Notes: a model not told the origin generated them from the letters alone. DNA of 2,374 nucleotides from Escherichia phage ECO95 1-6-1 (OR845476.1), one strand, 5' to 3'; shown: positions 1-2,374, counted from the stretch's first letter. Made by a program: numbers and translations.

Positions 1-809
1 TCCACAAACGGCGCAGAAGCCACGCCGCTGTCCAGCAATAAATAGGCGTTGGCCGTCCCCGGCCCCCTCGGTGCTTCGTGCTCAAAGAAAATCCGGTCAA
101 TGCTCAGTCCGGCAACACCGGCAATCATCGACCGGTACACCGCGTCCGTGTGGTAGTTGCCCACCAGGTTAAACTGGTTACGGCAACGCTCACGCAGTTC
201 ATCATCGCTTTCCTCATCCGCGCCCGGTACGGTCAGCCAGTTTTCTTCACTGGCCACATGGCTGATGCCGTCCACGGCCACCGGCAGAATGCGGTAATAT
301 CCCGGCGCAAGGTTATATGCGCCGCCCGTTCCCGTTGCCTTTACCGGCAGCAGTGCGCTGGCGGTACCGGAGGCAATCACCACATCTTCCGTGATGGCCA
401 GTTCATACACTCTGCCGTTAATACGTTCTGTCTGTATCACCGTTCCGGCCTTCACCGTCACCACGGCGCTGGCGTCCTCCTTGTAAAAACGGATAACGCC
501 CTGTGCGGCGCTGGCGGGCTTCGGCGTGATATTCACCGCCCATGCCAGCAGCCGTAACATGCTTCCACTGGCCGTGGCCACAAACATATTGGCCAGTACG
601 GTGGAGATCAGAACCTCCTTCAGCCACATCACCGGCGCGGTTACAATGGCCGTGACCAGTCGCCAGAACGGAGACATACGGGAGGTATTCGTGATAATTC
701 CCTCCTCCGTCGCAATGGCATTAAAGCGATCGCGAATCTCTTCTTCCGTCACCGGCATACCGCTGGCTTTCACCACCTCTTCAAAGTCAACCTGTGGCTT
801 TTCCGTCAT
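1..809 (-). CDS. Baseplate J / gp47-family baseplate assembly protein, N-terminal 269 codons (3' end outside window)
   Basis: ATG at 809..807, preceded by AGGTGG (plus coords 819..814) 4 nt upstream. The frame, translated by hand, is open to position 1 with no stop: MTEKPQVDFEEVVKASGMPVTEEEIRDRFNAIATEEGIITNTSRMSPFWRLVTAIVTAPVMWLKEVLISTVLANMFVATASGSMLRLLAWAVNITPKPASAAQGVIRFYKEDASAVVTVKAGTVIQTERINGRVYELAITEDVVIASGTASALLPVKATGTGGAYNLAPGYYRILPVAVDGISHVASEENWLTVPGADEESDDELRERCRNQF... The ATASG...LA...G..R.PA..A.G.V.F core and the later GADEESDDELRER motif are characteristic of P2 gpJ / Mu gp47-type baseplate proteins. Missing from the ORF track only because the stop lies outside the window. Confidence 0.75.
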   Translation of the reverse strand, partial: MTEKPQVDFEEVVKASGMPVTEEEIRDRFNAIATEEGIITNTSRMSPFWRLVTAIVTAPVMWLKEVLISTVLANMFVATASGSMLRLLAWAVNITPKPASAAQGVIRFYKEDASAVVTVKAGTVIQTERINGRVYELAITEDVVIASGTASALLPVKATGTGGAYNLAPGYYRILPVAVDGISHVASEENWLTVPGADEESDDELRERCRNQFNLVGNYHTDAVYRSMIAGVAGLSIDRIFFEHEAPRGPGTANAYLLLDSGVASAPFV

Positions 810-1135
810 AAATCCACCTGTACCGATATTCCGCCGAAGTCATAAGTGCTGGCCGTGATCCACAACCGTGTCCGGCTTTCTTCACCGATTTCCACCGTCC
901 CCGGAACGATGCGCTCATCATCTTCAATCAGTAATTCCATACGGGTAAAAATATCTGCCCGCATGGTCGGGCTTCTCTCTGCGATTAATTCCGTCGCCAG
1001 ACCGCTTTCAATAATGGAATGAATAATGTCCTGCCCGATACTTTTACGGTTATTACATAATTCAGGTTCATTACCGGTATTCAGGACAAAGTCATTTCCC
1101 TGAATTAATAAATCAACATACAGGATTTCATTCAT
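806..1135 (-). CDS. Small acidic phage tail/baseplate-associated protein, function unknown (109 aa; possibly gp25/gpW-like wedge protein or a DUF-type tail protein)
   Basis: Complete ORF, ATG at 1135..1133 and TGA at 808..806. An AGGAG Shine-Dalgarno (minus strand, plus coords 1148..1144) sits 8 nt upstream of the ATG. The start overlaps the upstream stop and the stop overlaps the downstream start, both as ATGA. Product has roughly 20 Asp/Glu against 8 Lys/Arg. Function is inferred only from its position between a tape measure and a baseplate J gene; the segment SIGQDIIHSIIESG weakly recalls gp25/gpW-type proteins, unverified. Confidence 0.7.
   Translation of the reverse strand: MNEILYVDLLIQGNDFVLNTGNEPELCNNRKSIGQDIIHSIIESGLATELIAERSPTMRADIFTRMELLIEDDERIVPGTVEIGEESRTRLWITASTYDFGGISVQVDL
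814..819 (-). promoter_or_regulatory. Shine-Dalgarno-like AGGTGG for the baseplate J gene, lying inside the 3' end of the 109-aa CDS
   Basis: Minus-strand sequence CGGTACAGGTGGATTT-ATG; AGGTGG with a 4-nt spacer (short but usable), start codon overlapping the upstream stop (ATGA). Confidence 0.45.
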
Positions 1136-2374
1136 ACGCCCAGCTCCTGAAACTCCATTAACTGCCCCGGCGTTATCATTTCTTTTGGATAGATATTGAC
1201 AGTATTAATTTTCCGGCTGTTATCCGTCACAGCCCCTGAGTTATTACTGACAGATTTACTGATACCACCTTTATCAATACCTTTTAATTCTCCACCAGTA
1301 GAAAGCGTATTTGTTGTCAGTGCCGACGGTGACTCGTTAGCCAGCGAAATATTGACACCGGGTATTTTATTCAGCTTTTCTACAATCCAGTTCCATGATT
1401 TCAGGAAGCTACCTTTAACGGACTGCCAGATATTATCAAACATGGATACAATACCACCGGCCATCCCGCTTAATGCCTGTGAAGGTGAAAATCCCGTCAG
1501 CAGATTAATAAAGCCGTTCCAGCCGTCCTTAATCCATTGCCATGCCGTCGAGAACACACCGGCAAGCCATTCGACAACGCCAGCCACAGCGGTAAACGCT
1601 GCCGTATTCATCACCGCCGCCTGTACATCGTCCCAGTGTTTAATCAGCAACCAGCAACCCGCCGCAAGCAACGTTATCGCCCCGATCACAAGCAAGACCG
1701 GCCAGCTCATAAGATTAATACCGATTCCGGCCATGATTGCCGCCATACGAACGGCCAGCAACGCTCCGCGCAAAAATTTAAGCGTCGCATTCCAGGCGAT
1801 AACAGCAATTTGTGCCAACCATACCATTGCCGTATATGCTTTCGTGACGGCGGTCATGGCAACCCAGATCCCGCGTAAACCTGCCATGATGAACTTAGAA
1901 GCGCCCATCACAATATTGGCAACCGCGCCCACTGCCGCAAACCCCAGCAACGCCATAGCGGCGTAGCCGATAACACGGGCAATGTTGGGAAATAGCTGCA
2001 TCCATCTGGCAAATGTCTGTCCCATATCCGCCAGACGATTCAGCACCGGATACAATACCGGGATTAGTGTCAGCCCTATTACGGTCTGAATAGCTTTCAG
2101 GATTTGTACAAACCGATCCCACGGTTTCACCAGTTTACTGGCCATCTCCTGCGTACGTTTCAGACCGTCAGATCCGCCCAGTTCGGTGATGTTCCTCTGG
2201 AGAAGCGCCACATTACCGTAAAGGTGTTTGACCACAGCCGAACTGTCACCGAATGCCGCATCCAGTTCCGCCTGGGCTTTCAGATTCCCTTCCAGGCTCT
2301 TGCCGTATTTGCCCTGCAATTTAATCAGCATCTCAGGCATGGACAGCATTTTGCCGGTGGCATCCGTAAAGGAC
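1132..2374 (-). CDS. Phage tail tape measure protein, C-terminal portion (5' end outside window; stop TGA at 1134..1132)
   Basis: The minus-strand frame is open from the window edge (2373) to the stop at 1132-1134; the track's Met at 2349 is internal, since the 8 in-frame codons upstream (SFTDATGK) have no stop. Translation has an N-proximal charged, helical-looking stretch (KAQAELDAAF, LKRTQEMASKLVKPWDRF), then about 190 residues of long hydrophobic Ala/Ile/Leu/Val/Gly segments (e.g. IARVIGYAAMALLGFAAVGAVANIVMGA, SWPVLLVIGAITLLAAGCWLL), then a Trp-rich region and a Ser/Thr/Asn/Gly-rich tail. That architecture, and its position directly upstream of baseplate genes, is typical of tape measure proteins. 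Family call is by eye, no HMM run. Confidence 0.75.
   Translation of the reverse strand, partial: SFTDATGKMLSMPEMLIKLQGKYGKSLEGNLKAQAELDAAFGDSSAVVKHLYGNVALLQRNITELGGSDGLKRTQEMASKLVKPWDRFVQILKAIQTVIGLTLIPVLYPVLNRLADMGQTFARWMQLFPNIARVIGYAAMALLGFAAVGAVANIVMGASKFIMAGLRGIWVAMTAVTKAYTAMVWLAQIAVIAWNATLKFLRGALLAVRMAAIMAGIGINLMSWPVLLVIGAITLLAAGCWLLIKHWDDVQAAVMNTAAFTAVAGVVEWLAGVFSTAWQWIKDGWNGFINLLTGFSPSQALSGMAGGIVSMFDNIWQSVKGSFLKSWNWIVEKLNKIPGVNISLANESPSALTTNTLSTGGELKGIDKGGISKSVSNNSGAVTDNSRKINTVNIYPKEMITPGQLMEFQELGV
1144..1148 (-). promoter_or_regulatory. Shine-Dalgarno (AGGAG) for the 109-aa gene, lying inside the 3' end of the tape measure CDS
   Basis: Minus-strand sequence TCAGGAGCTGGGCGT-ATG; AGGAG with an 8-nt spacer to the ATG at 1135..1133. 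Seen directly in sequence. Confidence 0.55.

Follow-up and report, generated by a model that had tools for sequence, protein, structure and literature searches.

We found that a 2,374-nt stretch of DNA from Escherichia phage ECO95 1-6-1 (OR845476.1; "the window" below is this stretch at its full length) is very probably the middle of the tail operon of a Salmonella enterica prophage of the HP1 subgroup of Peduoviridae, near Evevirus and phage ESSI-2, and that the 109-amino-acid (aa) protein encoded there between the tape measure and baseplate J genes is probably a very diverged equivalent of T4 gp25 and P2 gpW. The evidence comes from the identity of the three genes, the predicted fold of the small protein, which belongs to family DUF2590, and the conservation of the gene order in complete prophages and named phages.

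Three overlapping tail genes fill the window

Reading of the minus strand bore out the tight succession of tape measure, 109-aa acidic protein and baseplate J described by a model working from the DNA alone (the sequence-only reading). That reading had placed the three genes at 806-2374, a range that covers the tape measure and small genes and leaves the J gene, at 1-809, outside (Table 1). Both junctions are 4-bp ATGA overlaps, so no intergenic DNA separates the three genes, and Shine-Dalgarno-like sequences lie 8 nt upstream of the DUF2590 start (AGGAG, 1148-1144) and 4 nt upstream of the J start (AGGTGG, 819-814). The overlaps suggest that the three genes are translationally coupled. Promoter-like and terminator-like matches across the window were at chance level, and open reading frames (ORFs) on the plus strand, such as one of 256 aa at 1196..1966, were set aside as antisense shadows of the tape measure gene.

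Table 1. Genes and gene junctions in the window
Feature	Coordinates	Strand	Remarks
Tape measure gene, 3′ part	1132..2374	minus	413 codons (2373..1135) plus stop TGA at 1134-1132
DUF2590 gene, 109 aa, acidic	806..1135	minus	PF10761; read as putative gp25/gpW-type sheath initiator of the HP1-type baseplate
Baseplate J/gp47-type wedge gene, 5′ part	1..809	minus	269 codons; leaves the window at base 1
ATGA overlap, tape measure stop / DUF2590 start (ATG 1135-1133)	1132..1135	minus	direct sequence reading
ATGA overlap, DUF2590 stop (TGA 808-806) / J start (ATG 809-807)	806..809	minus	direct sequence reading

The tape measure fragment matched phrog_28, "tail length tape measure protein", with an E-value (E) of 1.9e-51 and also TIGR01760 with E 3.9e-5, which falls under the TIGR01760 cutoff. 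PF10145 (PhageMin_Tail) is present in full-length homologues of 656 aa, and a 656-aa homologue is preceded by Phage_TAC_10 and DUF6890, a frameshifted chaperone pair. Profile match, position after the chaperone pair and a length suited to the tail are those of a tape measure protein, in agreement with what the sequence-only reading had made of this 5′ gene. Residues ~75-330 of the fragment (window 1400-2150, minus strand), in the C-terminal half of the protein, form a long, strongly hydrophobic, helix-rich stretch that gave a weak, sub-threshold match to TMEM_230_134 (E 0.039). The J gene product matched PF04865 (Baseplate_J; E 3.2e-25, 89.3 bits against a cutoff of 21.1) and phrog_6, a baseplate wedge subunit (E 1.3e-49). 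At full length J is 394 aa in relatives, and BLASTP of the window's J against P2 gpJ gave no match.

The predicted fold of the 109-aa protein matches gp25-like sheath initiators

The 109-aa protein matched PF10761 (DUF2590) with E 7.9e-45 and a score of 151.6 bits, where the cutoff is 27, and the match spans 99 of the profile's 100 positions; the profile hidden Markov model check proposed with the sequence-only reading thus returned a DUF family. The protein also belongs to phrog_1237, whose function is unassigned, and NCBIfam has no model matching it. It is acidic, with an isoelectric point of 4.2 and 20 aspartate plus glutamate residues against 8 lysine plus arginine. DUF2590 sequences were gathered as a 50-sequence alignment from two homologue searches and, by an exhaustive profile search, as 194 representatives at 50% clustering, of which 122 were used for a profile. 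This 122-sequence profile matched 2 of 177,635 PDB sequences, both of them sheath initiators (E217 gp34 and Pa193 gp35, E 0.16-0.18), and an 8-sequence DUF2590 profile found no match among PDB sequences by hmmsearch. A homologue, ACA1 gp38, has been linked by HHpred to P2 gpW (17% identity) and to HP1 P51732 (PMC10612066).

The AlphaFold2 model of the 109-aa protein (predicted local distance difference test score (pLDDT) 84, predicted template modelling score 0.69) shows an N-terminal hairpin, modelled with low confidence, together with three helices and a three-stranded sheet. This fold matches gp25-like sheath initiators from at least seven independent solved baseplates. Fold-match scores were 8.7 for IraD, 7.7 for the Geobacter gp25-like protein 2ia7, 6.5 for the XM1 sheath initiator gp15, 6.4 for TssE, 5.8 for the Pa193 sheath initiator gp35, 5.6 for pyocin R2 PA0617, 5.4 for P1 PmgA, and 4.7-4.9 for the A-1(L) sheath initiator, diffocin CD1370 and Afp9. 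We take IraD to be a member of the IraD/Gp25-like family (InterPro IPR007048). The suggestion that the small protein is a wedge or adaptor component comparable with GPW_gp25 therefore finds support in the predicted fold, and the structure prediction proposed alongside it yielded a gp25-like sheath-initiator fold.

Several results weigh against equating DUF2590 with gp25 and gpW. At E ≤ 0.1, PF04965 (GPW_gp25) matched neither the window protein nor any of 122 diverse DUF2590 members. Alignment of DUF2590 profiles with P2 gpW alone by hhalign was not significant (E 0.65 and 0.19), nor was alignment with an 11-sequence gpW profile (E 0.082, 77 collinear columns). In that last, non-significant alignment, D73-E74-R75 of DUF2590 falls on E-P-R of the gpW W-E-P-R motif, and DUF2590 is without a loop of ~10 residues that in gpW reads TPxGSRVMRRxYGS; D73 and R75 are at least 90% conserved among DUF2590 proteins. 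Foldseek against the PDB returned nothing at E < 0.1 for the 109-aa model, whose N-terminal 30 residues, the proposed handshake strands, have a pLDDT of ~60. No solved HP1-type baseplate structure or DUF2590 protein was found among PDB sequences, and the presence of ACA1 gp38, a distant homologue, in virions is documented by one mass-spectrometry spectrum (PMC10612066).

P0313, a 1614-aa protein from the exhaustive profile search that has five MBG_2 repeats, aligned with the DUF2590 profile in six places (E 2.6e-12), each time at profile positions ~64-97, the C-terminal strands; its repeats may have produced a false positive, or a beta motif may be shared. P0232, P0203 and P0217 are DUF2590 proteins lengthened at the N-terminus by 75-160 residues, in one case by a Bact_surface_Ig-like domain; these extensions could be real decorations or mis-called starts within the upstream tape measure gene.

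Relatives of the window are complete prophages with an HP1-type tail module

Megablast matched the window at 100% identity to two contigs of "Salmonella phage S.Kent 1-2-1" (Salmonella Kentucky), both unannotated, and at ~80-81% identity over its whole length to the Evevirus phages ESSI2_ev239, ev040, ev129 and ev015. Among complete E. coli genomes, 43 of 5,426 had a copy at ~80% identity. Public assemblies contain the exact 109-aa protein very often, and its named close homologues are mostly from Salmonella enterica.

We examined six 20-kb Salmonella contexts that encode an identical 109-aa protein in DNA 91-95% identical to the window, and all six share one layout. A head part (large terminase, gpO scaffold, P2-family capsid, small terminase, gpL, gpR and gpS-like genes) is followed by sheath (DUF2586), tube (Phage_HP1_Orf24), holin, M15 endolysin, spanin and chaperone (Phage_TAC_10 plus DUF6890) genes, and then by those for the tape measure, DUF2590, Baseplate_J, a 195-aa protein, the fibre, Caudo_TAP, and proteins of 241, 181 and 566 aa. 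Terminase, scaffold and P2-type capsid genes lie 6-10 kb upstream in 6/6 contexts. The S. Kentucky contigs have the same gene order and span the tail module only; ESSI2_ev239 also encodes portal, integrase, cox and primase.

Further baseplate proteins of this module also had family matches. The 195-aa protein matched Tail_P2_I (E 6e-5), and the 181-aa protein falls in PF25759, "HP1 ORF34 baseplate complex protein". Pfam matches to the 566-aa protein were weak (E 6e-5 to 7e-4), with Gp5_C just over its cutoff and Phage_base_V, an oligonucleotide/oligosaccharide-binding (OB) domain, and Gp5_trimer_C under theirs. Against solved structures it matched the T4 gp5 beta-helix (E 1e-7) and the VgrG OB domain (E 0.008). 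The 566-aa protein is, as predicted from these matches, a VgrG-like fusion of hub and spike, and its gene is positioned downstream of the fibre genes and not behind the tape measure gene. HHpred has assigned the halves of HP1 orf35 to gpD (N-terminal) and gpV (C-terminal) and the orf34 homologue to gpU (PMC10612066). BLASTP found no match of the 566-aa protein to P2 gpD or gpV or of the 181-aa protein to gpU; profiles of the orf33-like and orf34-like proteins found none among PDB sequences, and the orf34 profile none to gpU. The 241-aa homologue of HP1 orf33 (L002:14892-15617) belongs to phrog_1677, function unassigned, and is without a Pfam family or PDB sequence match; its ACA1 homologue, gp46, is represented by 2 virion spectra (PMC10612066, Table S2).

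Two regions of these prophages vary. After the last tail gene and near the prophage end, variant L002 encodes a 254-aa reverse transcriptase (RVT_1) preceded by a 61-aa ORF (L002:18589-19508). In PADLOC the reverse transcriptase was closest to the retron-type RT_VI (E 1.5e-16). Other variants carry a YafO toxin pair (L003, L005) or PIN_12 (L006) at this spot, which looks like a variable hotspot for defence genes or other cargo. Between L016:1486-4298 and L002:12101-14902 the fibre is 85% and the fibre chaperone 67% identical, with flanking baseplate genes at 97-100%; exchange of a host-range cassette between near-identical prophages would fit this divergence.

The gene order is conserved across the HP1 lineage

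The order tape measure, small protein, J, I, fibre, chaperone, orf33, orf34 and orf35 is shared gene for gene by HP1 (orf27 to orf35, with tape measure, small gene and J as orf27-28-29), K139 (orf31 to orf39, with orf31-32-33), SW5 and ESSI2_ev239. The core from tape measure through J and I is also kept, with small departures, in phiO18P (small gene and J 23 bp apart), ValB1MD-2 (the gene at the fibre-chaperone position annotated merely as hypothetical), Pseudoalteromonas ACA2 (hub and spike as two genes) and Pseudomonas phi3 (orf33-like and orf34-like genes without annotation). By tblastn, the small protein is encoded in 75 phage records, which come from Vibrio, Escherichia, Pseudomonas, Pseudoalteromonas, Salmonella, Pasteurella, Haemophilus, Aeromonas and other hosts. 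Both gene order and homologous proteins (Phage_HP1_Orf24, HP1_ORF34) are those of an HP1-subgroup Peduoviridae tail module. "HP1-like viruses" were split from "P2-like viruses" by Lavigne et al. 2009 (PMC2771037), and the HP1 and P2 subgroups have since been extended over all Peduoviridae genera (PMC10612066).

The tail genes of P2 form two operons, V-W-J-I-H-G and FI-FII-E-T-U-D, and in P2 and nine relatives the gpW gene immediately precedes J. Relative to P2, the HP1 layout has W-J-I-H-G between T and the equivalents of U, D and V, and it is because of this arrangement that J comes almost directly behind the tape measure gene. The sequence-only reading had judged the order unusual and had named its occurrence in well-characterised phages as the finding that would overturn this view. 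Since the order is fixed in HP1, K139 and six other Peduoviridae genera, that is the finding we obtained.

A proposed role for DUF2590 and its alternatives

The late tail genes of this lineage lie in one co-directional block, which runs from sheath, tube, lysis cassette and tail chaperone with its frameshift product through tape measure, DUF2590, J and I to fibre, fibre chaperone, orf33-like, orf34-like and the orf35-like hub and spike fusion, with nothing missing. We propose that DUF2590 works as T4 gp25, TssE and pyocin PA0617 do: the inner baseplate would have six copies of it attached to the J/I wedge. The first sheath ring would lock onto their N-terminal strands as a template, and in this way the sheath would polymerise in its extended state. 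The position of DUF2590 in the baseplate and its part in sheath initiation are thus suggested by comparison with those systems.

The sequence-only reading had spoken of a less-characterised architecture, which holds for the HP1-type baseplate as compared with those of P2, Mu and T4 and does not hold for the gene order, which is ordinary. There is perhaps a slight chance that the HP1-type baseplate is a distinct minimal design, with a trimmed gp25 that lacks the gpW loop, one fused hub and spike, and the orf33 protein; its contacts for sheath initiation might then not be those of the solved P2, Mu, T4 or pyocin types.

It is improbable that DUF2590 has a gp25 fold and a non-structural task, for example as a chaperone in assembly or, like IraD, in the regulation of a host protein. 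Its strong acidity and the single spectrum for the ACA1 homologue would suit such a task, but all HP1-type phages examined have the gene at this one place, between tape measure and J, just as gpW is directly upstream of J in P2 and the relatives checked, and no second gp25-like gene was noticed in the tail modules. To our knowledge, every solved contractile system (T4, the type VI secretion system, pyocin, the antifeeding prophage AFP and the Photorhabdus virulence cassette PVC) has a gp25-like protein.

We consider it slightly less probable still that DUF2590 does another structural job in the baseplate, as glue or adaptor like P2 gpX or T4 gp53, with the orf33-like or orf34-like protein as the true sheath initiator. 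Searches gave no role to either of these proteins (241 and 181 aa), and the sequence link between DUF2590 and GPW_gp25 is weak; against this, the fold match is specifically to sheath initiators, the 109-aa size and J-adjacent position agree with gpW, and the orf34 homologue has been assigned to gpU by HHpred (PMC10612066).

The sequence-only reading also put forward a reduced module such as a tailocin-like particle. A reduced contractile module of this kind (tailocin or some other phage-tail-like particle), with a single small protein standing in for the usual hub and wedge genes after the tape measure gene and before J, would accord with the one small gene that parts the two in the 2.4-kb window. 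It is very unlikely, as the flanks of the 91-95% identical relatives hold terminase, scaffold, capsid, head completion, lysis, VgrG-like hub/spike and two further baseplate genes, ESSI2_ev239 has portal, integrase, cox and primase, and the gene order is that of HP1 and K139, long-studied plaque-forming phages. An R-type tailocin is a tail module without capsid, portal and terminase, and the presence of head, terminase and lysis genes alongside a full tail module therefore sets this element apart from one.

Significance and comparison with known systems

Both the gene arrangement and the gpW-like assignment appear in the literature and in GenBank annotation and are therefore already known, and the significance of these results beyond annotation is small. 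Pfam and NCBI still label the family of the 109-aa protein as a DUF. The label of putative gpW/gp25-type sheath initiator can replace DUF2590 in prophages, numbering in the thousands, of enterobacteria, Vibrio, Aeromonas, Pasteurellaceae and Pseudomonas. Additionally, HP1-like phages only seem to lack hub genes behind the tape measure gene, as their gene order is permuted without a loss, and knowing this guards against misclassifying fragments of HP1-like prophages as tailocins.

HP1 (Hpunavirus; NC_001697) and K139 share with the window's relatives the order from sheath through orf35, and in both the small gene overlaps or abuts both neighbours. Their small proteins are 59.6% (HP1) and 39% (K139) identical to that of the window by tblastn, and the tube and orf34 proteins of the window's relatives fall in Pfam families named after HP1. 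The lineages differ in hosts and genera, in their diverged fibre and fibre-chaperone genes, and in the M15 peptidase of the lysis cassette in the window's lineage.

P2 gpW, T4 gp25, TssE and PA0617 (PF04965) differ from DUF2590 in having no significant sequence match to it, and the gene that precedes W in P2 is the spike gene V and not the tape measure gene. One likeness to GPW_gp25 genes is that the DUF2590 gene lies directly upstream of Baseplate_J, with a 4-bp overlap, and so shows the gpW-J adjacency. The gp38 proteins of ACA1 and ACA2 have been called "P2 gpW-like sheath initiator" on the basis of HHpred (PMC10612066); they are 44% identical to the window protein by tblastn and are likewise encoded between tape measure and J. 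ACA2 differs in its separate hub and spike (gp48, gp49), as compared with the fused 566-aa protein of the window's lineage, and in a diversity-generating retroelement after the fibre genes. The closest named phages are ESSI2_ev239 and its relatives (Evevirus) together with Cronobacter phage ESSI-2, which have an identical organisation and small proteins 80-91% identical to that of the window, whereas the window's own element is a Salmonella prophage variant that is 100% identical only to the unannotated S. Kentucky contigs.

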